A DNA stretch of 64,000 nucleotides from Burkholderiales bacterium 39-55-53 (lineage in GTDB: Bacteria > Pseudomonadota > Gammaproteobacteria > Burkholderiales > Burkholderiaceae_C): positions 37,817 to 101,816 of the forward strand of contig NCJK01000008.1 in NCBI GenBank assembly GCA_002282445.1. The letters are read 5' to 3'. Of this stretch, positions 20,530 to 31,501 are shown one piece after another. The notes under the pieces are model-generated. The model was not told the origin of the DNA, made no database searches, and was given only the letters and a program-made list of their open reading frames with translations. The position numbers were made by a program, and so were the translations under genes. Every line of letters starts with the position of its first letter. Position 1 is the first letter of the stretch.

Positions 20530-22107
20530 ATGTCACTGGCTCTGATTCACAGTCGTGCACTTTTGGGTTTGCAAGCACCCGCCGTGACCGTGGAGGTGCA
20601 TTTAGCCAATGGTCTACCCAGTTTCACGCTGGTGGGCTTGGCCGATACCGAAGTCAAAGAGGCGCGTGAGCGGGTGCGCTGCGCCATTCAAAACGCAGGG
20701 CTGGACTTCCCTACTAATAAGAGGATCACCGTCAACCTAGCGCCAGCGGATTTGCCCAAAGACTCGGGCCGGTTTGATTTGCCCATTGCCTTGGGCATCT
20801 TGGCTGCCCACGGACAACTGGACATTGCGGCTTTGACGCAGCATGAGTTTGCAGGCGAGTTGTCTTTGTCTGGCGAGCTTCGACCTGTGCGTGGTGCGCT
20901 GGCCATGGGGCTAGCACTTCGCGGTGCGGGTGTGCGCACGCGTTTGGTGTTGCCGCCGGGCAGTGCTGAAGAAGCCGCACTTGTGCCCACGGCCGAGGTG
21001 TACCGTGCACAGCACCTGAGCGATGTGGTGGCGCACTTTGCCAAGCCAGAACTCAAAGGCTTGGTGGCTCAGCGCGAAGAAGGCACAACGCACGATGTGC
21101 ACACCACCGATGGTTGGTGTCGCATCGAAACACCTCAACTGAGTACGCACCAAGACAAAGTCCCTCACGCACGCGGCCCAGACTTGGCAGATGTCAAAGG
21201 CCAAGCTATTCCGCGTCGCGCGCTAGAGATTGCCGCAGCAGGCGGGCACTCTCTTCTATTAGTAGGGCCACCCGGCACAGGTAAGTCCATGCTGGCGCAA
21301 CGCTTTGCAGCGCTGCTGCCTGATATGACCTTAGATGAAGCTTTAGAGAGTGCGGCCATCGCCAGCTTGGCCGGACGCTTTGAGCTGAGCCAATGGATGC
21401 AGCGGCCCACGCGCAGCCCACACCACACGGCCACCTCTGTGGCGCTGGTGGGTGGTGGCACACCGCCACGACCAGGTGAGATATCTCTCGCGCACAACGG
21501 CGTGTTGTTCTTGGATGAATTGGCTGAAGTCAAACGCAGCGCCTTGGAAGCGTTGCGTGAACCCTTAGAGAACGGCCACATCACCATCTCACGCGCGGCG
21601 ACGCAGGCCAAGTTTCCGGCACGGTTTCAGCTGATCGCTGCGATGAACCCTTGCCCCTGTGGCTACTTAGGTTCTTCGATCAAAGCCTGCCGATGCACGC
21701 CCGACCAAGTGGCGCGTTACCAAGGCAAGCTCAGCGGACCGTTGCTAGACCGCATTGATTTGCAGGTGGAAGTGCCCACGCTGACAGCCGATGTGTTGAT
21801 GCAAACTGCACCTGGCGAGTCCACCGCCACGGTGCGCGCGCGATGCTTGACCGCTCATGCCAAAGCCGTGGCACGACAAGGCACACCCAACCAAACCCTG
21901 CAAGGCCAAGCTTTAGAAACGCACATGCAGTTAGATGTGGCAGCTGCCACGTTTTTACAAAACGCGGCCACCAAACTAGGCTGGTCGAGCCGCAGCACAC
22001 ACCGTGCGCTGCGCGTGGCACGCACCATTGCAGACTTGAGCCACAGCACCACCGTCCAAGTGGCGCATGTGGCAGAGGCCCTGCAATACCGGCGCGTGCT
22101 GTCTTAG
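20530..22107 (+). CDS. comM: YifB/ComM family Mg-chelatase-like AAA+ ATPase
   Basis: Lon-like N-terminal domain, Walker A GPPGTGKS and MCM-like motifs. The ATG at 20530 leaves the NtrC site outside the CDS. Confidence 0.9.
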   Translation: MSLALIHSRALLGLQAPAVTVEVHLANGLPSFTLVGLADTEVKEARERVRCAIQNAGLDFPTNKRITVNLAPADLPKDSGRFDLPIALGILAAHGQLDIAALTQHEFAGELSLSGELRPVRGALAMGLALRGAGVRTRLVLPPGSAEEAALVPTAEVYRAQHLSDVVAHFAKPELKGLVAQREEGTTHDVHTTDGWCRIETPQLSTHQDKVPHARGPDLADVKGQAIPRRALEIAAAGGHSLLLVGPPGTGKSMLAQRFAALLPDMTLDEALESAAIASLAGRFELSQWMQRPTRSPHHTATSVALVGGGTPPRPGEISLAHNGVLFLDELAEVKRSALEALREPLENGHITISRAATQAKFPARFQLIAAMNPCPCGYLGSSIKACRCTPDQVARYQGKLSGPLLDRIDLQVEVPTLTADVLMQTAPGESTATVRARCLTAHAKAVARQGTPNQTLQGQALETHMQLDVAAATFLQNAATKLGWSSRSTHRALRVARTIADLSHSTTVQVAHVAEALQYRRVLS

Positions 22108-22841
22108 GCGCGAGCGCCCAACACAATACCTTCGCGTTGCAATTGCGCTATTACCTCTGCACCTTCGCGCACAAACACATCGGGCTCGGGGTGCGACAAC
22201 CAACGCGCCAACACCATGAAGGCTTGCTCGCCCGTCTGACCTTCGCGCAGCAGGTCGAGTAACTGACCTCTGAACACACTGCTCTCCAACACATGCAACT
22301 CGTCGCTCATGTCGCGCAGCATCGACACATAGGTGCTTTGCATGTCGTCAGGTTTGTGGTCGGTGTCGATGCTGTGCACGGGCCACTCGTAGGCTGCTTC
22401 CACATGCGTGGGGTTGAGCACCACCGCGTGTTGCATCACGTCGGCGCTGGCATTGAAGGCGGGCCACTGCACTGGTGCGGTGTTGACCGCGTTTTGCAGC
22501 CACTCGAAATGCGCCAAGTCTTGCAACAAAGCAGGCAAGGTTTGCATGTCTGGGCTTTCACACACATGATCCACAAATGCACGTTGCGTGGTGCTGGCCC
22601 ACGGCGTGTGGTTCGGCGCATCTTTCAAGAACAAGCGCACGGCATGTTCCCAAATATCTTCGCCCAGCAGGGCTTGCGTAATCGGAAACGCGGGCTCCAA
22701 CACATCGCGTAAATGCTTGACCATTTCTTGCGTGCAAACTGCGGCAGCTTTGGCATCGACACCTTCGGGGGCGGGCACGCTCAATGGGTCGCGCAAGTGG
22801 CGAGCCAAGGCAAATTGATATTGGCGGAAATCGTTCAGCAT
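22104..22841 (-). CDS. DUF2063 (HvfC/BufC-like) paralog
   Basis: Shares ARHLRDP, HTPW, DLAHFEW, VLNP and HKP blocks with the HvfC at 25415..26158. Its start overlaps the upstream gene by 7 nt. Confidence 0.7.
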   Translation of the reverse strand: MLNDFRQYQFALARHLRDPLSVPAPEGVDAKAAAVCTQEMVKHLRDVLEPAFPITQALLGEDIWEHAVRLFLKDAPNHTPWASTTQRAFVDHVCESPDMQTLPALLQDLAHFEWLQNAVNTAPVQWPAFNASADVMQHAVVLNPTHVEAAYEWPVHSIDTDHKPDDMQSTYVSMLRDMSDELHVLESSVFRGQLLDLLREGQTGEQAFMVLARWLSHPEPDVFVREGAEVIAQLQREGIVLGARA

Positions 22842-23560
22842 GTCAGGGCCTCCAAGTTGAGTTGTTTCACATCGTCCACGCAACGCGCCACACGGCGATG
22901 CGTACGTGCGAGCACGTCTCCTAACAGGGGATATTCACGGCCCACACGCACGTAGTCGATGCTGCCTAGTGGCAACGCACGCAAAAACGCATGCGGGTCA
23001 AAGCCATAGTTCAAACCGTTCGCGGCCAGTGCGTGCAGATCCAAATGCAGACTGCAGCCCGATGCTGAAACAACCTCAGAGATGAACTCTGCCTCGTTCA
23101 TCTCCACCAAAGTGGGTGCCATGTGGTGCATCACGTTGCGAATGCCGATGCGCAAACCCAGTGCCTCTTGCACTTGGGCAATGCGTGACACCGTCCACTT
23201 CACCGCTTCGCGAGTGCTGGAGATGGGCAAGTTGATGAACAAGGGCGTGTCGTCAGCACTCCAAGCCAGCGCTTCAGAAAACACTTGGATGCCGTGCTCT
23301 GCAATGAAGCTGCGCAAATCGCGCAACACTTCTTTGTCCAACACGCCGGGGCCGCCCAACGACAGGCTTTGACTCAAACACACACTGGGGTAATGCTGTG
23401 TGAGCTGCTGCAAGTCTTTACCCACCTTGCCGCCGATGCCAATCCAATCGGGAGGGGTGAGTTCTAAAAACTGCAAGTTATCAGGCGCACGGCTTTTCAG
23501 CGGCGCTAGCAGCGCAGGTCGCAGAGCTAGGCCCGCGCCTTGAAGGATGTGATGTTTCAT
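22835..23560 (-). CDS. DUF692/MNIO-like protein with degenerate metal ligands (possible pseudoenzyme)
   Basis: Aligns without gaps to HvfB (26155..26997), but conserved ligand positions are replaced (H->L, EH->EA, E->R, DVNN->DLHA, HVAGH->RVGRE) and the C-terminus is truncated. Confidence 0.65.
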   Translation of the reverse strand: MKHHILQGAGLALRPALLAPLKSRAPDNLQFLELTPPDWIGIGGKVGKDLQQLTQHYPSVCLSQSLSLGGPGVLDKEVLRDLRSFIAEHGIQVFSEALAWSADDTPLFINLPISSTREAVKWTVSRIAQVQEALGLRIGIRNVMHHMAPTLVEMNEAEFISEVVSASGCSLHLDLHALAANGLNYGFDPHAFLRALPLGSIDYVRVGREYPLLGDVLARTHRRVARCVDDVKQLNLEALTC

Positions 23561-23736
23561 AAGGTTGCTTTCATACAAAGTGCCAATGCATGGCTCCAAG
23601 CCTCGTATTCGTCACCGCTTCTGAGAACATGAACAAACGAATTTGCAAATCACCACCTTTTTGATAGCAGCCCCAAAACATCACAAATCGCGTAGGCGTC
23701 ACTCTAAAAATTGAGGCTGCGTATCATTAACAGCCC

Positions 23737-24930
23737 ATGTCTCAAAACCAGTTTCACTCACGCGATGCCCGCTTTGTTTGGGTACTTTCGCTACTGCAAC
23801 TCATCAGTTGGGGAAGTGTGTTTTACGGATTCGCGTTGTTCATGGAGCCGCTCGAACAAGCCTTGAGCATGAGCCGGGCCGAATCGTCGCTGGGGTTTAG
23901 CTTGATGTTGTTGGCCGAAGGCGTGCTGGCTTTTCCTGTGGGCCGCTGGATTGACCGTGGGCATGAACGTGCGGTGATGACTTGTGGCTCGTTGCTGGTG
24001 GCATTGGCGTTTGTGCTGCACAGCCAAATCACCACCGCGCTTGAGTTTTATGCGGTGTGGGCTTTGTTGGGTGTGGGCTTGGCGGGCACTTTGTACCCGC
24101 CTGCGTTTGCGGTGTTGACGCGGCGGTTTCCACAGCACTTCAGACGCGCCATCATCATCCTCAGCTTTTTGGGCGGGTTGGCCAGCACAGTGTTTATTCC
24201 ACTCGTGGCGTGGCTCATTGACGCGTTGGGCTGGCGCGATGCCCTGTGCGCGTTGGCCGCCATGCACCTGCTGGTGTGTGCGCCCGTACATTGGCTGCTC
24301 TTGCGTGATGCGCCACGGCGCGCCGTGTTGGCATCCACACACACCGACAGCGCCACACTTTGGCACTTCGTGCGCCTGCCTCAGTTTTGGCTGCTGGCTA
24401 CCTGTGTGGTGTTGCTCATGGGCGTGGCGTCGGCCCTACCCGCCCACATGGTGAGCCTACTGCGCGAAACAGGCATGGATGAATCATGGGCGATTGCCGT
24501 ACCAGCCAGCATTGGCGTGTTGCAAGTGATGGGGCGCTTGGGTTTATATGTGACCGAGCATCGCGTGGATGTGCACGTCGCCAACCGTTGGGTGACGGTG
24601 CTGATTCCGCTTGGCTTTTTAACGCTACTGATTGGCTCAGGCCACGGGATGTGGGGCGTGTTGTTTGTGGTGTTTTATGGTTTGGGTAACGGCATGCTCA
24701 CCATCGTCAAAGGCACGGTGATGGCGCAATACGTGAGCCGTGAGCACATGGGGAGCTTGAACGGCTTGCTAGGTTTGCCCATGGCACTGGCCCGCGCCGC
24801 AGCCCCTTGGTTGATGGGGCTGCTGTGGTCTGCCGAGGCCGGTTACACCGTGGGTTTGTGGTGCATGCTGGCAGCTAGCGTGGTGGGGGTGGCGGCGTTG
24901 TGGTTGGCACAGCGGCTGCGCAACACGTAA
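23737..24930 (+). CDS. MFS transporter
   Basis: 12-TM profile, 397 aa, with an MFS loop motif GRWIDRGHER. Confidence 0.8.
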   Translation: MSQNQFHSRDARFVWVLSLLQLISWGSVFYGFALFMEPLEQALSMSRAESSLGFSLMLLAEGVLAFPVGRWIDRGHERAVMTCGSLLVALAFVLHSQITTALEFYAVWALLGVGLAGTLYPPAFAVLTRRFPQHFRRAIIILSFLGGLASTVFIPLVAWLIDALGWRDALCALAAMHLLVCAPVHWLLLRDAPRRAVLASTHTDSATLWHFVRLPQFWLLATCVVLLMGVASALPAHMVSLLRETGMDESWAIAVPASIGVLQVMGRLGLYVTEHRVDVHVANRWVTVLIPLGFLTLLIGSGHGMWGVLFVVFYGLGNGMLTIVKGTVMAQYVSREHMGSLNGLLGLPMALARAAAPWLMGLLWSAEAGYTVGLWCMLAASVVGVAALWLAQRLRNT

Positions 24931-25418
24931 TCGAACGACAAACGGCCGGGGCCCATCCACAACAAGGTCCACAACATGCCCATCAGCACCACGGGGTACT
25001 TGAAATTGCCAAAGCCTTTGTCTGTGAACACATAGCCTTGCGCCAGCTCAGTCCAAGTGCGCCATGCCTCGGGCCAGTGCACGCTGGCAATGGCCACCAC
25101 ACTCAGCACCAACAAAGACACCGAAAAGAAGCGAGTGCCAAGCCCGATCACCAAAGCGATGCCGCCGAGCAGCTCAAACCACGTGGCCATTTGCCAACTG
25201 ATGTTGGGTGGCACAAGGTTGAACGGAAACGGAAACTGGTCTTGAATATCTGCAAACCAGTTTTCGCCGTTGAATTTTTCTAAACCGGATTCAAAAAAGT
25301 CCCAGCCCAGAATTAAACGCAGGCTGAGTAGGCCCACCCACAAACCCAGCGCGTCGAATGTGCCAAGGTATTGGTTGAGGCGTGTTTTCATACACACGTG
25401 ATGGATGTTGTGGCTCAT
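24843..25418 (-). CDS. DoxX family membrane protein (HvfX/BufD-like)
   Basis: DoxX-type 4-TM pattern. ATGA start/stop overlap with hvfC. Confidence 0.8.
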   Translation of the reverse strand: MSHNIHHVCMKTRLNQYLGTFDALGLWVGLLSLRLILGWDFFESGLEKFNGENWFADIQDQFPFPFNLVPPNISWQMATWFELLGGIALVIGLGTRFFSVSLLVLSVVAIASVHWPEAWRTWTELAQGYVFTDKGFGNFKYPVVLMGMLWTLLWMGPGRLSFDYVLRSRCANHNAATPTTLAASMHHKPTV

Positions 25419-26158
25419 GGCTGCGTTCCCAAAATGATTTCTTGATCTTGTAGTTGTTGGAGCAAGGTGACACCAAATGCCATCAGCAGTTCGGGCTGCG
25501 GGTGTTGCATTTGTTCAGCGATGAGCTGCATCACTCGTTTGCCGGTCATGGGCTGCGCGTCTAGCAGCGCCAGCACATGAGCGGTAGCAGCATTCACCTC
25601 TGTGAACTGCACCGCATCGTCTGCATCGCGATACACCACCAAATGCGTGTCCATAGGTTTGCGTGGCTTGTGTTGCTCACCTATGCGATGCACAGCCCAG
25701 TCGTAGTGCAAGTCCATGCGTGCAGGGTTGAGGACCACGATCTCTGCCATCAGGTTGCCTTGTGCGTTGGCAACGGGGCGCGTCACGTCCATCACATCTA
25801 CCGCCAGCTCGGCCCATTCGTAATGCGCCAAGTCAGGTAGCCACCGTGGCAAAGGCTGCTTAGGTTGGCCCTCTTGTAAATAGCGCACAAACTCACGTGG
25901 AATGTCTCGAAACCACGGTGTGTGCAAAGGCCAGTCGCGGTAGAAAGTACGGCACAAACGTCGCCAAGCGGTGTCACCCAGCAACTTGCGGCTCAACGGC
26001 ATGCAGGTGTCGATGAAGCCGCACACGTTGTTAAACAGCATCTCGTTGTACACCGCCATGCGCCGTGCGGGCACGCCTGCGGGGCGCATGGTGTGATGTG
26101 GGTCACGCAAATGGCGCGCCATGTCTTGCTGAAAACTCTGAAACAAGGCCGTCATCAC
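25415..26158 (-). CDS. hvfC: DUF2063 RiPP maturation partner (HvfC/BufC family)
   Basis: MARHLRDP N-terminal motif and an ATGA overlap with hvfB. Confidence 0.85.
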   Translation of the reverse strand: MMTALFQSFQQDMARHLRDPHHTMRPAGVPARRMAVYNEMLFNNVCGFIDTCMPLSRKLLGDTAWRRLCRTFYRDWPLHTPWFRDIPREFVRYLQEGQPKQPLPRWLPDLAHYEWAELAVDVMDVTRPVANAQGNLMAEIVVLNPARMDLHYDWAVHRIGEQHKPRKPMDTHLVVYRDADDAVQFTEVNAATAHVLALLDAQPMTGKRVMQLIAEQMQHPQPELLMAFGVTLLQQLQDQEIILGTQP

Positions 26159-26997
26159 GCCACCTTCTTCATGCGTGGCGCTTGCGCCTGCAAACGTGCA
26201 ATCTGCATGACTTCAGCCGTCAGCTCGTCCAAGCTGGGCAAGTTGAAGTCGCGCTCTAAGCAGGTGGGCACATCGCCGCCCATGCGCTCATACGCGGCCA
26301 ATAGCAAATGCCACACGGGGTCGATCACCTCTGCACCGTGTGTGTCGATCAGCAGACCATCGGGCTCTACATAATGACCGGCCACATGCACATAGCACGT
26401 GCGCTCTAGCGGTAAGGTGTTGAGATAGTCCAAGGCGTCAAAGCCGAAATTTTGGCTGTTGACGTAAATATTGTTCACATCCAAATGCAACAGGCAATCT
26501 GCCTCTTTGACCACCGCCGCCACAAACTCGGCTTCGCTCATTTCCGCGCCGGGTGGGGCAATGTAGGTGGATGCGTTTTCAATGCCAATGCGCATTTCCA
26601 AAATGTCTTGCGCTTGCTTGATGCGCCTGGCTGTCCACATCACCGCCTCTTGGGTGCAGGGGATGGGAAGCAAGTCGTACAAGTGCGATTCGTCAGAACA
26701 CCAAGACAAATGCTCGGTGAACAGCTGCATGCCGTGCGCCTTCATGAAGGCTTTGGTTTTGTGCAGCAGTTGTGTGTCCAACGGTGCAGCCCCCCCCAAA
26801 GAGAGGGACAAGCCGTGGCACACAAACGGGTAGCGTTCGGTGAAGTGACGCAAGTCTTTGGCCGACCGGCCTCCCAAGCCAGCCCAGTTTTCGGGCGCAA
26901 CTTCAAAGAAGTCGATGACGTTTGGCACGCTGTGTTTCAGCGGCTCTATCAATTCACGGCGAAAGCCAAGGCCTGCGCCTGAGAGGGGTCGGTTCAT
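26155..26997 (-). CDS. hvfB: DUF692 multinuclear non-heme iron oxidative enzyme (HvfB/BufB family MNIO)
   Basis: All family motifs are present: CHGLSLSLGG, TEHLSW, IENAS, LDVNNIYVN, HVAGH, IDTHG and ERD. Confidence 0.9.
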   Translation of the reverse strand: MNRPLSGAGLGFRRELIEPLKHSVPNVIDFFEVAPENWAGLGGRSAKDLRHFTERYPFVCHGLSLSLGGAAPLDTQLLHKTKAFMKAHGMQLFTEHLSWCSDESHLYDLLPIPCTQEAVMWTARRIKQAQDILEMRIGIENASTYIAPPGAEMSEAEFVAAVVKEADCLLHLDVNNIYVNSQNFGFDALDYLNTLPLERTCYVHVAGHYVEPDGLLIDTHGAEVIDPVWHLLLAAYERMGGDVPTCLERDFNLPSLDELTAEVMQIARLQAQAPRMKKVA

Positions 26998-27027
26998 GAT
27001 GGCGTCACTCCACGCAAGGTTGCTGAA

Positions 27028-27318
27028 TTACTTCTTAGCGCCGCACTTGGCTTCACCGCACTTGCCGTCTTTTTTCTTGTCGCCGCCACAAGAAGCATCT
27101 TTCTTCTTGTCAGCGCCACAGGAGGCTTGCTTTTTCTTGTCTGCACCGCACTTGGCTTCGCCGCATTTGCCGTCTTTTTGCTTCATGTCAGCTTGGGCCA
27201 ATTGGTAGCCACTGTCGAGTTTGCTGGCTTCAAATGGGTTGGCTGCGATAGCGGGGCTGATAGCGGCCACAGCGAATGCAGAGCCCAAAGCCAAAGAGAG
27301 GAGTTGTTGTTTTTTCAT
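27028..27318 (-). CDS. hvfA: HvfA-type Cys-rich RiPP metallophore precursor
   Basis: 96 aa from the ATG at 27318. Sec signal peptide (…SPAIA/ANPF), then six Cys-Gly motifs in a Lys-rich core (GKCGEAKCG...ASCG...ASCG...GKCGEAKCG). Immediately upstream of hvfB. Confidence 0.8.
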   Translation of the reverse strand: MKKQQLLSLALGSAFAVAAISPAIAANPFEASKLDSGYQLAQADMKQKDGKCGEAKCGADKKKQASCGADKKKDASCGGDKKKDGKCGEAKCGAKK

Positions 27319-27373
27319 GATGAGAGTCCTTTGAAAGGTGAGTTGATAATCATGACCAGCGGTCTTTGGGTAA

Positions 27374-27399
27374 TTCGCCGCCGCAAACAAATTGGTTAC
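27374..27399 (-). promoter_or_regulatory. SigF-type ECF promoter for the hvfA operon
   Basis: The minus strand reads GTAACC-aatttgtttgcggcgg-CGAA, an exact match to GTAACC-N16-CGAA, about 50 nt upstream of hvfA. Confidence 0.6.
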
Positions 27400-27422
27400 A
27401 AACATTTATAAAAAGTTTTTCT

Positions 27423-27448
27423 GTAACTTTTCATTCCTCACCAACGAA
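27423..27448 (+). promoter_or_regulatory. SigF-type ECF promoter (autoregulatory) for the sigma/anti-sigma operon
   Basis: GTAACT-N16-CGAA on the plus strand, ending 5 nt before the GTG at 27454. Confidence 0.5.
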
Positions 27449-27453
27449 CTGAT

Positions 27454-28014
27454 GTGACCGTGGATTTACAAACCTTAGAAACCTCACTGCACGCCACCTG
27501 GATTCAAGCGTTAGCCGGACACGCGCCTAGCTACGAAAAAGCGCTGTCAGCCATCAGTGGGCATTTGCGGGCGTTTTTGAAACGTCGTTTGTATTCACGG
27601 CCCCAAGACGTCGAGGACCTCGTGCAAGAAACCCTGTTTGCCATTCATCAAAAGCGACACACCTACCAAAGCGATCAACCGCTGACGGCTTGGGTGTATG
27701 CGATTGCGCGCTACAAGTTGATTGATCACTTGCGCGCTCATTCGCGCCGCGAAAGCAAGCACGACGACATCGACGACTGGGCAGAACAACTGTGGGTCGA
27801 CAACGACAACGAGGCACGCGATGCCTCGCGCGATGTTCACCAGCTGTTGTCCGAGCTGCCCGATAAGCAACGCCTGCCCATCGAGCACACCAAGCTGCAA
27901 GGCTTGTCGATTGCTGAGTCTGCTCAGCTCACGGGGCAGAGCGAAGCAGCTGTCAAAGTCAACATCCACCGCGGGCTCAAAGCCTTGGCCCAAAAGTTTG
28001 GAGTCACACCATGA
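27454..28014 (+). CDS. sigF: ECF RNA polymerase sigma factor (SigF/ECF16-like)
   Basis: Sigma-70 region 2 (DLVQETLFAIHQKRHTY) and region 4 (LPDKQRLPIEHTKLQGLSIAESAQLTG). ATGA overlap with the downstream DUF1109 gene. Confidence 0.85.
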   Translation: MTVDLQTLETSLHATWIQALAGHAPSYEKALSAISGHLRAFLKRRLYSRPQDVEDLVQETLFAIHQKRHTYQSDQPLTAWVYAIARYKLIDHLRAHSRRESKHDDIDDWAEQLWVDNDNEARDASRDVHQLLSELPDKQRLPIEHTKLQGLSIAESAQLTGQSEAAVKVNIHRGLKALAQKFGVTP

Positions 28015-28652
28015 AAACCAACGATCTCATTGCCATGCTGGCGACTGAAGCTAGCGCCACACCGACTGTCTCGCCCTTGCGCCGCTGCGCTCAAGCCACC
28101 GCCGCTGGCGTAGCCATCAGCTTGGCACTGGTGCTAACACTGTGGGGCTTGAACCCAGAGCTGAACGCCCTCGCCCTCACCCAAGCGTTTTGGGTAAAGG
28201 TGGTGTGGCTGGTGCTCACCTGCACATTTGCAATGCCTGTGGTGATGCACTTAGCCCGCCCCGGCGTGGCCGCCGGCCGAGGCGTGTGGGGCATCGCTGC
28301 CGCACTGGTGGGCATGGCCATGCTGGCCTTGGCACAAGTGGCCACAGTGGATGAGGACACAGGCATGCAACTGATGTTGGGCGGCTCTTGGCAAGTGTGC
28401 AGCGCCAGCATTGTGGCGCTGTCTGTTCCGTTGTTGGCGGCTTTGTTGTGGATGCTGCGCGGCATGGCCCCTACGCGCCCAGCCTTGGCGGGCGCAAGTG
28501 CTGGCTTGATGGCAGGCGCGATCGCGGGCTTGGTGTACTCGCTCCACTGCCCCGAAACTGCTTATGCGTTTTTGGCGGTTTGGTATGTGGCGGGCATGGC
28601 CGTGATGACGGGCGTGGGCGCGTTACTAGGTTCACGCTTGTTGCGTTGGTGA
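28011..28652 (+). CDS. nrsF: NrsF (DUF1109) family membrane anti-sigma factor
   Basis: Six-TM protein starting MKTNDLIAMLA. Translationally coupled to the ECF sigma gene. Confidence 0.8.
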   Translation: MKTNDLIAMLATEASATPTVSPLRRCAQATAAGVAISLALVLTLWGLNPELNALALTQAFWVKVVWLVLTCTFAMPVVMHLARPGVAAGRGVWGIAAALVGMAMLALAQVATVDEDTGMQLMLGGSWQVCSASIVALSVPLLAALLWMLRGMAPTRPALAGASAGLMAGAIAGLVYSLHCPETAYAFLAVWYVAGMAVMTGVGALLGSRLLRW

Positions 28653-28716
28653 GGCGTGCGCTGAAGTGCCTCGCTGAGTATTTACACATCACGCTGCAAC
28701 TTCACACGCAGCGCAA

Positions 28717-28755
28717 ACAAAAAAGGCTCCGTGTCAACGGAGCCTTTTTGCTTTT
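28717..28755. terminator. bidirectional rho-independent terminator (nrsF / metH)
   Basis: AAAAAAGGCTCCGT-gtca-ACGGAGCCTTTTT, flanked by an A-run and a T-run. Confidence 0.7.
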
Positions 28756-31501
28756 ACAAGTTAGGCGCTAGCAAGCGTTCTAAATCTTTCACCGTCACAC
28801 CTTGTCGTTGCGCCAAGTCGTGCACTTGGTCTTCACCAATGCGGCCCACGTTGAAGTAGGTTGCTTCTGGGTGGGCCAAGTAAAAACCGCTCACGCTGGC
28901 TGCGGGTGTCATGGCCAAGCTGCTGGTCAAGCCCATGTCGATGTCGTCACACTGCAGCAAAGCAAACATGTCTTGCTTCGCGCTGTGGTCGGGGCAGGCT
29001 GGGTAGCCAGGCGCTGGACGAATGCCTTGGTATTTTTCTTTGATCAGGTCTTCGTTGCTCAGCGCTTCGTCTGCGGCATAGCCCCACAAGTCGGTGCGCA
29101 CGCGGTGGTGCATGCACTCGGCAAAGGCTTCGGCCAAGCGGTCGGCCAAGGCTTTGAACAAAATGGCGGAGTAGTCGTCATGCGCTTCGATGAAACGCTT
29201 TTCTTGCTTTTCTGCGCCTAGGCCTGCGGTCACCGCAAACAAGCCCACGTAGTCAGCGGCTTGGGTTTGGTCAGCCACAAAGTCGGCCAAGCAACGGTTA
29301 GGGTTGTTGTTTGGTTTGACCGTTTGTTGGCGCAAGCCGTGCCATGTCATCACTTGCTGTTGGCGGGTTTCGTCGGCGTACAAAACAATGTCATCACCTA
29401 CGCGCTGTGCAGGGTACAAGCCCACCACTGCATTGGCAGTGAGCCAGCGGTTGGCGATGATTTTTTTCAGCATCGCTTGGCCGTCGGCATACACCTTCTT
29501 GGCTTCCACGCCCACCACCGCGTCGTCGAGGATGGCGGGGAATGGGCCAGCCAAATCCCACGTTTGGAAGAACGGGGCCCAGTCGATGTATTTCTCTAGC
29601 TCAGCGAGGTCGAAGTTTTTGAACACGCGACGGCCAATGAACTTGGGCTTAGCGGGTTTGTAGCTATCAAAGCTCACAGGTGTGGCGTTGGCACGCGCTT
29701 GGGCCAAGGTGACCAACGACGTTTGCTTTTTGTTGGCGTGCTGCTCCCGCACATTGGCGTAATCGGCGTTCAGCTCGGCAATGTATTTAGCCGCTTGGTC
29801 TGACAACAAACCTTGCGCCACGCTCACGCTGCGTGAGGCATCGGGCACGTACACCACGGGGCCGTCGTAATGCGGTGCAATCTTCACGGCGGTGTGCACG
29901 CGGCTGCACGTTGCGCCACCAATCATCAGCGGCATTAGCCGCGAGCGGAAGTAATCGTCTTTTTGCATTTCGCCCGCGACGTATTGCATTTCTTCCAGCG
30001 ACGGGGTGATGAGGCCAGACAAGCCAATGATGTCTGCGCCCTCTTCTTTGGCCTTGGCCAAAATTTCGTGGCAAGGCACCATCACGCCCATGTTGACCAC
30101 TTCGTAGTTGTTGCACTGCAAGACCACGGTGACAATGTTTTTGCCAATGTCGTGCACGTCGCCCTTGACCGTGGCGATGACGATCTTTCCCTTGGCTTTC
30201 ACGTCTTGGCCCGCTTCGGCTTGCAAGCGTTTTTCTTCTTCGATGTAGGGCACGAGGTGCGCCACCGCTTGCTTCATCACGCGGGCCGACTTGACTACCT
30301 GCGGCAAGAACATCTTGCCTTGGCCAAACAAATCACCCACCACGTTCATGCCGTCCATCAACGGACCTTCAATCACGTGCAAGGGACGGCCGCCCTTGGC
30401 CAATATTTCGCGGTAAGCCTCTTCGGTGTCTTCGTTGATGAAGTCGGTGATGCCATGCACCAGCGCGTGGCTCAGGCGGTGTGCCACCGTCACGGGGGCA
30501 TCAGCAGTGCCGCGCCAAGCCAGCTTTTGGCTGTCGTCTTTGGCTGCGCCTTTGGCGGTTTCGGCTACTTCAATCAGGCGTTCGCCCGGCGTGAGGTGTG
30601 CTTCGCCTTCTTTGTATTTGGGGATGCGGTTGAGCACCACATCTTCCACACGCTCACGCAGTGTGGGCTCGAGGTCGTCATATACGCCCACCATGCCGGC
30701 GTTGACGATGCCTATGTCCATTCCCGCCTTGATGGCGTGGTACAGGAATACGGTGTGAATGGCTTCACGCACAGGGTCGTTGCCGCGGAAACTGAACGAC
30801 ACGTTCGACACGCCGCCGCTCACCTTCGCGCCGGGAAGGTTTTGCTTGATCCAACGCGTGGCTTCGATGAAGTCCACCGCGTAGTTGTCGTGTTCTTCAA
30901 TGCCGGTGGCAATGGCGAAGATGTTGGGGTCGAAGATGATGTCTTCGGGTGGGAAGCCCACTTCGTCCACCAACACGCGGTAAGCGCGTTCGCAAATTTC
31001 AATCTTGCGTGCGTAGGTGTCGGCTTGGCCTTTTTCGTCAAACGCCATCACCACCGCAGCCGCACCGTAGCGCTTGACCAGCGTGGCTTGGCGCTTGAAC
31101 TCGTCCAAGCCTTCTTTCATGCTGATCGAGTTGACGATGCCTTTGCCTTGAATGCAACGCAAGCCCGCTTCGATGACCGACCACTTCGATGAATCCACCA
31201 TCACCGGCACGCGCGCAATGTCGGGCTCGCCCGCCATCAGGTTAAGGAAGCGAACCATCGCGGCTTGGCTGTCCAACATGGCTTCGTCCATGTTGACGTC
31301 AATCACCTGTGCGCCGTTTTCCACTTGCTGACGCGCAACGGCCAAAGCTTGCTCGTACTCGCCGTTCAGAATCATGCGCGCAAAAGCTTTGGAGCCAGTG
31401 ACGTTGGTGCGCTCGCCAACGTTGACAAACAAACTGCCCTCGCCAATAGAGACTGGCTCAAGGCCAGACAGCTTCATGGGGGGAACTGCAGTGGAATTCA
31501 T
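28754..31501 (-). CDS. metH: methionine synthase, large module (pterin-binding, B12-binding, AdoMet-activation domains)
   Basis: Pterin-binding barrel, [11 protein letters not shown]12 motif and a C-terminal activation domain. ATG at 31501 preceded by AGGTGAG. Confidence 0.9.

Follow-up and report, generated by a model that had tools for sequence, protein, structure and literature searches.

The locus described here raises the question of why a bacterium should keep an enzyme paralog whose catalytic site is no longer there. The window, a stretch of 64,000 nucleotides from Burkholderiales bacterium 39-55-53 (assembly GCA_002282445.1, contig NCJK01000008.1, positions 37,817 to 101,816 of the forward strand), carries an MNIO-family protein without iron ligands, here called MNIO', together with its DUF2063/HvfC-type partner, PME', near a canonical operon of the bufferin/oxazolin type. 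A first-pass annotation of this DNA had read the pair as a pseudoenzyme with an intact partner, kept as the companion of a functional copy, or else as an early-stage pseudogene. This analysis showed that the multinuclear iron site of MNIO' and its second shell are dismantled, while MNIO' still has its barrel fold and its partner gene, to which it remains translationally coupled. On balance, the iron-less pair appears to be kept by selection across freshwater Limnohabitans-like bacteria, as a working, non-oxidising pair rather than a dying gene.

Loss of the iron site and retention of the fold

The features of the pair are as follows.

22835..23560, minus strand: MNIO', ligand-less MNIO (DUF692/PF05114) paralog of 241 aa, TIM barrel
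22104..22841, minus strand: PME', DUF2063/HvfC-type partner of 245 aa, with a helical N-domain and a C-domain resembling a RiPP (ribosomally synthesised and post-translationally modified peptide) recognition element
22835..22841, minus strand: overlap of the MNIO' stop and the PME' start, 7 nt, ATGNTGA, translational coupling

Both frames were intact and overlapped by 7 nt, as had been noted before. The longest open reading frames (ORFs) were 22835..23599 and 22104..22883, both on the minus strand, with ATG starts at 23560 and 22841 backed by orthologues, and the ATGNTGA overlap was also found at four related loci (L009, L051, L053 and L060). The almost gapless alignment with the canonical pair, claimed in the first-pass annotation, was likewise recovered: in an alignment of 233 aa with the canonical MNIO (26155..26997), MNIO' is 43% identical and needs 2 gap positions, and PME', aligned over 241 aa, is 34% identical to its canonical DUF2063 counterpart and needs 1 gap. 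No PsiF gene, and no further MNIO or DUF2063 copy, was found elsewhere in the window. The terminal Cys of MNIO' was considered as a functional, TglA-like residue and dropped, because the overlap with the PME' start forces the last codon to read TGN, so that an invariant Cys at this place is no sign of function.

Membership of the family was clear and incomplete at the same time. The PF05114 profile matched MNIO' with 152.5 bits (gathering cutoff 25) over profile positions 1-200 of 263 only, and the canonical MNIO with 329 bits over its whole length. MNIO' scored 178.7 bits against the NCBIfam HvfB equivalog model (NF003818), under the cutoff of 360 that the canonical neighbour passes with 393.8 bits, and it also fell under the NCBIfam BufB cutoff. 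Public annotation (WP_104796872.1, BDU54363.1) calls MNIO' a "DUF692 family multinuclear iron-containing protein", a transfer of function that its sequence does not support; the partner is named "HvfC family RiPP maturation protein" by NCBI.

The iron ligands of VcMbnB are H55, H91, E135, D165, N168, H194, D209, H211 and E238, with D240 as acid/base (PMC8888699). The canonical signature HHEDNHDHED was found in 42 of 44 relatives within an alignment of 82 sequences; at the same ten positions MNIO' has L62, A97, R141, D174, A177, R205, R219, H221 and two gaps, and thus keeps two of the ten residues only (D174 and H221). In HvfB, a single change to Ala or Ser at N175, D242 or H244 kills activity (bioRxiv 10.64898/2026.07.17.739211). 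Iron-dependent cysteine oxidation by MNIO' can be excluded with good confidence. The substituted sequence blocks listed in the first-pass annotation were all found as written, and the alignment of the ligand positions showed the ligands to be lost, not conserved. The substitutions are themselves conserved among orthologues (CLSQSLSLGG, SEALAW, IRNV, HLDLHALA, YVRVG and ARTHRR), as is the tail (ARCVDDVxQLNLEAxTC).

The AlphaFold2 model of MNIO' (predicted local distance difference test score, pLDDT, 88; predicted template modelling score, pTM, 0.87) displayed a complete 8-stranded barrel, with "ARCV" (residues 225-228) as strand 8 and residues 232-240 as a helix. The last 40 or so residues had been described as missing, and a shortfall of 39 aa was confirmed, but a simple C-terminal loss does not fit the complete barrel of the model. 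From this model, the shortfall reads best as an internal loss of helix 7 (about 23 aa) together with a short terminal truncation, and "CVDD" is possibly a remnant of "CLERD". Foldseek gave template modelling (TM) scores of 0.84 with 3bww, an HvfB homologue, 0.79 with TglH (8hci_B) and 0.72 with MbnB.

The partner was found to be intact with its family blocks, as stated earlier. Both Pfam domains, PF09836 and PF22106 (NGO1945_C), match PME' above their cutoffs of 27 bits, with scores of 47 and 58 bits, and the NCBIfam HvfC model (NF050145) matches it with 158.8 bits, above its cutoff of 142. The AlphaFold2 model (pLDDT 92) resembled NGO1945 (3dee, target-normalised TM 0.78) and also TglI. The N-terminal helix, DFRQxQFALARHLRDP, is almost invariant; this helix is the element of the partner that contacts the MNIO in PesHI and PesXI (PMC13060819) and in MbnBC. 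The PME' family is conserved as strongly as the MNIO' family.

Conservation and selection

A protein search returned about 65 clusters, mostly of 241 aa, with 69-99% identity to MNIO', followed by a sharp drop below 69%, the next matches being canonical MNIOs of about 280 aa with 50% identity at most. The pair was found at more than 45 loci, with Limnohabitans sp. TS-CS-82, TEGF004 and Jir61 among the named members. Coding sequences were taken from 50 loci and compared pairwise by the Nei-Gojobori method (NG86). Frames were full-length at 37 of 42 loci for MNIO' and at 34 of 38 for PME'. The ratio of non-synonymous to synonymous substitution rates (dN/dS) was 0.097 for MNIO' (35 sequences, 491 pairs) and 0.128 for PME', values that are approximate with a median dS of about 1.1, near saturation for many pairs, and that stayed at or below 0.26 in every pair. 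Comparison genes gave 0.075 (canonical MNIO), 0.134 (canonical partner), 0.10 (DoxX), 0.11 (the MFS transporter), 0.073 (comM) and 0.064 (metH). Both genes of the degenerate pair are under purifying selection as strong as that of their neighbours.

The distribution of this constraint differed from that of an active enzyme. Along both degenerate proteins dN/dS was even (0.05-0.14). The ligand-bearing segment 141-208, which is the most constrained part of the active MNIO (0.028), evolves in MNIO' at the average of the gene (0.10), and the L2-loop segment of MNIO' gave 0.08. Such a pattern would be expected where catalysis has gone while the fold and the interactions are kept. An early-stage pseudogene is thus refuted for most lineages, with dN/dS of 0.10 and 0.13 and intact frames at 69-99% identity. 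The survey of relatives suggested in the first-pass annotation showed a conserved pair with low dN/dS, and decay in a minority only (L043, L044/45 and L003). In Limnohabitans sp. Jir61 (L002:6596-7339), a stop at codon 218 ("AEQM*HPKPELL") interrupts the frame of the canonical HvfC in the active operon, and the downstream degenerate pair is unbroken.

Locus context

The neighbourhood of the pair in the window comprises the following features.

24843..27315, minus strand: canonical bufferin/oxazolin-type operon (Pfam and NCBIfam), with the active copy 3 kb away from the pair
27028..27315, minus strand: bufA/hvfA precursor, EGKCG-type
26155..26997, minus strand: canonical MNIO, 280 aa, all ligands present
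25415..26158, minus strand: canonical DUF2063/HvfC (Pfam and NCBIfam)
24843..25418, minus strand: DoxX (Pfam and NCBIfam)
27454..28014, plus strand: extracytoplasmic function (ECF) sigma factor (Pfam)
28011..28652, plus strand: NrsF anti-sigma factor (Pfam)
23737..24930, plus strand: MFS transporter (Pfam MFS_1), divergent from the pair

Among the related loci, four arrangements were seen between metH and comM.

Arrangement A: metH–MNIO'–PME'–comM
Arrangement B: as A, plus an MFS gene in divergent orientation
Arrangement C: metH–NrsF–ECF–bufA–MNIO–HvfC–DoxX–MNIO'–PME'–comM, co-directional from bufA on (e.g., Jir61 and TS-CS-82)
Arrangement D: as C, with an inserted MFS gene; this is the arrangement of the window

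The degenerate pair was present in every locus examined and the canonical operon was missing from about half of them, being confined to arrangements C and D, as the MFS gene is to B and D. On the tree of the pair, these arrangements are interleaved. The pair is therefore the constant occupant of the metH–comM slot and the active bufferin operon an optional one, so that the pair can no longer be seen as an appendage of an adjacent functional operon. The pseudoenzyme proposal thus stands for the loss of the residues needed for oxidation and for the maintenance of the pair with an intact partner, and falls for its tie to the neighbouring operon. No precursor gene was found near the pair in arrangements A and B, nor in the E-type loci described below.

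Several other traits of these loci vary between strains. The MFS gene, always directly divergent from MNIO' when present, has ArsK (arsenite efflux) as its best NCBIfam match, with 159 bits under a cutoff of 400, and it converges on DoxX, the 3' ends of the two genes sharing 88 nt (24843-24930). The window's BufA/HvfA has 95 aa, against 80 aa at most of the related loci (L002, L013 and L044 were compared) and 70 aa at L044/45, and its number of Cys-containing repeats differs between strains. Several lineages carry a PsiF-repeat gene between the degenerate partner and comM (L009:9484-9783, L060:8862-9173 and L051:1469-1780, all on the minus strand), which is not in the window and which encodes a protein of about 100 aa that has two repeats holding 4 Cys as well as a signal peptide; this protein is a candidate client, encoded on the opposite strand and not universal. 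Beside the pair, comM (yifB) is interrupted or truncated at L037:8330-10107, L053:6747-11047 and L001:4442-5090, the L053 insert carrying genes for a reverse transcriptase (RVT_1) and for a SEC-C-domain protein, and here comM looks like a hotspot for insertions.

Upstream region and promoters

About 100 nt located 5' of MNIO' are conserved whatever adjoins them upstream, with the metH terminator preceding them in arrangement A. An alignment of 36 loci covering all four arrangements gave the following elements.

23561..23665, minus strand: conserved upstream region of the pair
about 23657-23663, minus strand: CAAAAAG
23641-23650, minus strand: ATTTGCAAAT
23624-23641, minus strand: TTCGTTTGTTCATGTTCT, with the alignment form TTCGTTT..TCATGTTCT
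23608-23611, minus strand: CGAA, invariant
23582-23594, minus strand: hairpin GCCA/TGGC, about 20 nt before the MNIO' start
27374..27399, minus strand: GTAACC-N16-CGAA, facing bufA
27423..27448, plus strand: GTAACT-N16-CGAA, facing the ECF sigma gene

The last two elements belong to the canonical operon and its regulators; these divergent sigma-F-type promoters, conserved in 9 loci, correspond to the GTAACC-N16-CGAA motif published for sigma-F of Caulobacter (PMC3511200), and no other GTAAC[CT]-N15-17-CGAA site was found in the window beyond 27399 (minus strand) and 27423 (plus strand). The conserved upstream block of the pair has no second copy within the window. The stem extension of the hairpin covaries between loci (e.g., AGCCAT/ATGGCT and GGCCAA/TTGGCC), and the hairpin is lost in L019 and L023; an Rfam search over 22000..28800 returned no relevant family, and none for the hairpin.

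A sigma-F promoter was considered for the pair of the window and rejected, as only CGAA is present and the -35 position reads TTCATG/GTTCAT, the best -35 match 5' of MNIO' reaching 2 of 6 positions at N16 and 3 of 6 at N17. A scan of the MNIO' upstream region for the sigma-70 consensus gave no match either. Neither a Cys-rich nor any other ORF was found in the 176-nt region 5' of MNIO', and the lack of both a Cys-rich ORF and a GTAACC-N16-CGAA motif upstream of the pair agrees with what the first-pass annotation had reported. The Limnohabitans upstream region nevertheless shares the CAAAG…ATTTGC…CGAA layout and spacing of the E-type promoters presented below, with the -35 hexamer replaced, and the comparison of these sequences points to promoter remodelling.

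A deeper clade of degenerate pairs

A profile search of 1.84 billion representatives placed three degenerate proteins (P0187, P0085 and P0188) above all canonical MNIOs. Two proteins of canonical length, P0080 and P0083, are also degenerate, with the signatures HQSDAMPRMQ and QQCDALPRMQ. Five deep degenerate types, L053 included, were recognised, 37-48% identical to one another. Their clade was monophyletic in 200 of 200 neighbour-joining (NJ) bootstraps and nested among betaproteobacterial HvfB-type MNIOs, a topology that may suffer from the long branch, with shared derived residues in support of monophyly. All five types have lost about 20 family-invariant positions and have P15, P106, H145, A177 and L178 as newly invariant ones. 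The residues that replace the ligands vary by type: R, S, C or A for E140, R, L, M or C for H204, and R, H, P, S or D at D218. The replacement of metals by arginines was considered as a rule and rejected, the changes of E, H and D to R being limited to type 1 and its nearest relatives, with S, C, A, L, M and P elsewhere. Polar residues at the mouth of the barrel are invariant in the five types, one derived (H145) and four retained (E96, N142, H172 and D174).

Three of these types occupy E-type loci (L055-L062), with the layout metH–NrsF–ECF ⇄ MNIO*–PME*–(PsiF)–comM, in which no precursor, active MNIO or DoxX was found. A GTAAC[CTG]-N16-CGAA motif lies directly 5' of MNIO* in E-type loci (seen in L055, L056, L058 and L060), and dN/dS inside one E-type lineage was 0.09 and 0.16. 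A small ORF of 43-50 aa in the intergenic region of L055/56 was discarded as a gene; it spans the promoter and is not found in L058 and L060. These lineages carry the degenerate pair as the sole cargo of a sigma-F/NrsF locus, which does not fit the earlier view of the pair as the companion of a functional copy. Compared with the window, L053 and L060 have MetH proteins 93-97% identical, and a MNIO* 46-49% and a partner 51-61% identical; the canonical MNIO of L053 is still 93% identical to that of the window. Since genomes with near-identical metH carry pairs that are only 46-49% identical, the metH–comM slot holds deeply divergent "allelic" types.

Comparison with known systems

A non-catalytic role in this family had been considered undescribed, and one has in fact been described for PesX (PMC13060819, 2026 preprint). 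This MNIO-fold protein of the nitrilobacillin pes cluster of Peribacillus simplex lacks the iron-binding residues, co-purifies with PesI, which it sequesters, showed no activity, and inhibits PesH by competition, and a BLASTp search with PesX retrieves homologues from pes-like clusters only (PMC13060819). Both PesX and MNIO' are MNIO-fold TIM barrels that lack the residues for iron binding and whose genes lie next to that of a partner. PesX is expressed apart from the active MNIO, and its non-catalytic action through the partner has been proposed with in vitro support. However, the sequence of PesX does not reveal it as an MNIO, and it occurs in pes-like Firmicute clusters only, whereas MNIO' is a clear PF05114 member nested among betaproteobacterial HvfB/BufB-type MNIOs; PesX shares a single PesI with the active PesH, whereas MNIO' has its own partner paralog; and pes clusters always hold an active enzyme and precursors, whereas about half of the MNIO' loci hold neither. 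Set against the published description of PesX, the MNIO' family likely arose independently.

With HvfB/HvfC (oxazolin) and BufB/BufC (bufferin), the degenerate pair shares the fold, the two-gene layout with overlapping or abutting frames, the architecture of the partner and the sigma-F/NrsF setting. By contrast with these enzymes, MNIO' lacks 8 of 10 iron-site residues and about 12 further family-invariant positions, as well as helix 7, the C-terminal extension, a precursor of its own and a DoxX of its own. Catalytically dead regulatory paralogs, such as LytM factors (e.g., DipM) and CorB-CorD, have similarly lost metal ligands and kept their fold under purifying selection, but they belong to other folds and pathways.

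Proposed function and rival explanations

We infer that MNIO' and PME' form a heterodimer, that this heterodimer is unable to oxidise cysteine and that it acts by binding. The explanation towards which we lean is a non-catalytic, binding-only heterodimer that sequesters or escorts the partner, or a Cys-rich client bearing a signal peptide, within a sigma-F-type stress response. From a mechanistic point of view, MNIO' and PME' would form a predicted heterodimer that is retained without iron chemistry and that, by analogy with PesX/PesI, may keep the partner, or a Cys-rich precursor bearing a signal peptide, in a complex that is either non-productive or protected. Such holding could tune or buffer the response to metal or oxidant stress. 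The client would be encoded elsewhere, or would be the adjacent bufA where present; many bufferin precursors are indeed unlinked to MNIO genes (PMC12452194). The retention of both partner domains, the near-invariant N-terminal helix, the conserved L2-loop, the conserved overlap and the joint decay of the two genes argue, indirectly, that the heterodimer persists and that a peptide-binding surface is still used.

Several observations weigh against this explanation, or limit it. At L043, a premature stop shortens MNIO' to 172 aa and the partner is truncated; L044/45 combine a 15-aa in-frame deletion in MNIO' with a partner of 124 aa; and the partner of L003 measures about 116 aa. The function is thus dispensable in some backgrounds, as 3 lineages out of about 35 have lost part of one gene or of both, and the two genes tend to decay together (L043, L044/45). 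Braking of the adjacent operon in the manner of PesX cannot explain everything, unless the targets have their genes elsewhere, since neither a precursor gene nor an active MNIO lies near the pair at about half of the loci. Moreover, the invariant residues at the mouth of the barrel could be a new small site, rather than part of a purely passive scaffold.

This last point is the starting point of another explanation, that of a neofunctionalised enzyme in which a new site, either mononuclear of the 2-His-1-carboxylate type or metal-free (H145, H172, D174 and E96), carries out a new reaction with a peptide or small molecule as substrate. H145, which replaces an invariant Tyr/Phe, is fixed in five deep types alongside the retained D174, H172, E96 and N142; purifying selection is strong across the whole barrel, remodelled tail included; and Foldseek also returned sugar epimerases and isomerases of the same superfold. 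We nevertheless consider such an enzyme unlikely: the residues that replace the ligands differ by type, as would not be expected of a shared new catalytic site, MNIO' shows no special constraint in the segment where the active enzyme is constrained most, and PesX, the sole iron-less MNIO-like protein studied so far, showed no activity. It seems still less probable, though worth keeping in mind, that the heterodimer is a feedback component of the sigma-F/NrsF system, acting on the anti-sigma factor, the sigma factor or the inducing signal instead of a RiPP precursor. No operon other than the pair is divergent from the ECF sigma/NrsF genes in three deep types, where the pair has a sigma-F motif, and NrsF and the pair diverge fast together (40% identity for NrsF and 46% for MNIO* between L060 and the window, against 97% for metH). 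Arrangements A and B, however, keep the pair with a changed -35 element and without sigma or anti-sigma genes at the locus, and no known case ties a DUF2063 or MNIO protein to anti-sigma control.

Plain decay, with a duplicated MNIO/DUF2063 pair heading for loss, is, finally, very improbable. It would account for the damaged genes in L043, L044/45 and L003, and for the faster evolution of MNIO' than of the canonical MNIO at the same loci (e.g., 72% against 90% identity at L044). Decay would not, however, leave both genes with dN/dS of about 0.1 and the same length across 69-99% identity, nor conserve the substituted residues and the upstream region themselves; the pair, furthermore, survives where the active operon is missing, and in Jir61 it is the canonical HvfC, not the degenerate pair, that bears a stop.

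Significance

Both in use and in annotation, MNIOs pass for iron oxidases and for markers of RiPP gene clusters. The existence of a conserved clade without the iron site, but with the partner, shows that maturases are over-counted when genomes are mined by family membership. After PesX, the present pair would be a second, independent and far more widespread example of an MNIO pseudoenzyme. It is possible, albeit rather doubtful, that these pairs are a stand-alone stress module, ancestrally under sigma-F control, with a job other than RiPP maturation, either as a holdase or sensor for Cys-rich proteins with a signal peptide or through a new small metal or ligand site (centred on the derived H145, with D174 and H172). 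If this were true, the deep "allelic" types would reflect a diversifying co-evolution with a variable client, and MNIO' would be the first MNIO-fold protein to act outside peptide oxidation without depending on an active paralog. A pair that survives without an adjacent active enzyme or precursor offers a clean genetic system for working out what an MNIO–partner scaffold does beyond catalysis, and through it one could also learn how abundant freshwater bacteria adjust their metal-stress responses of the bufferin type.

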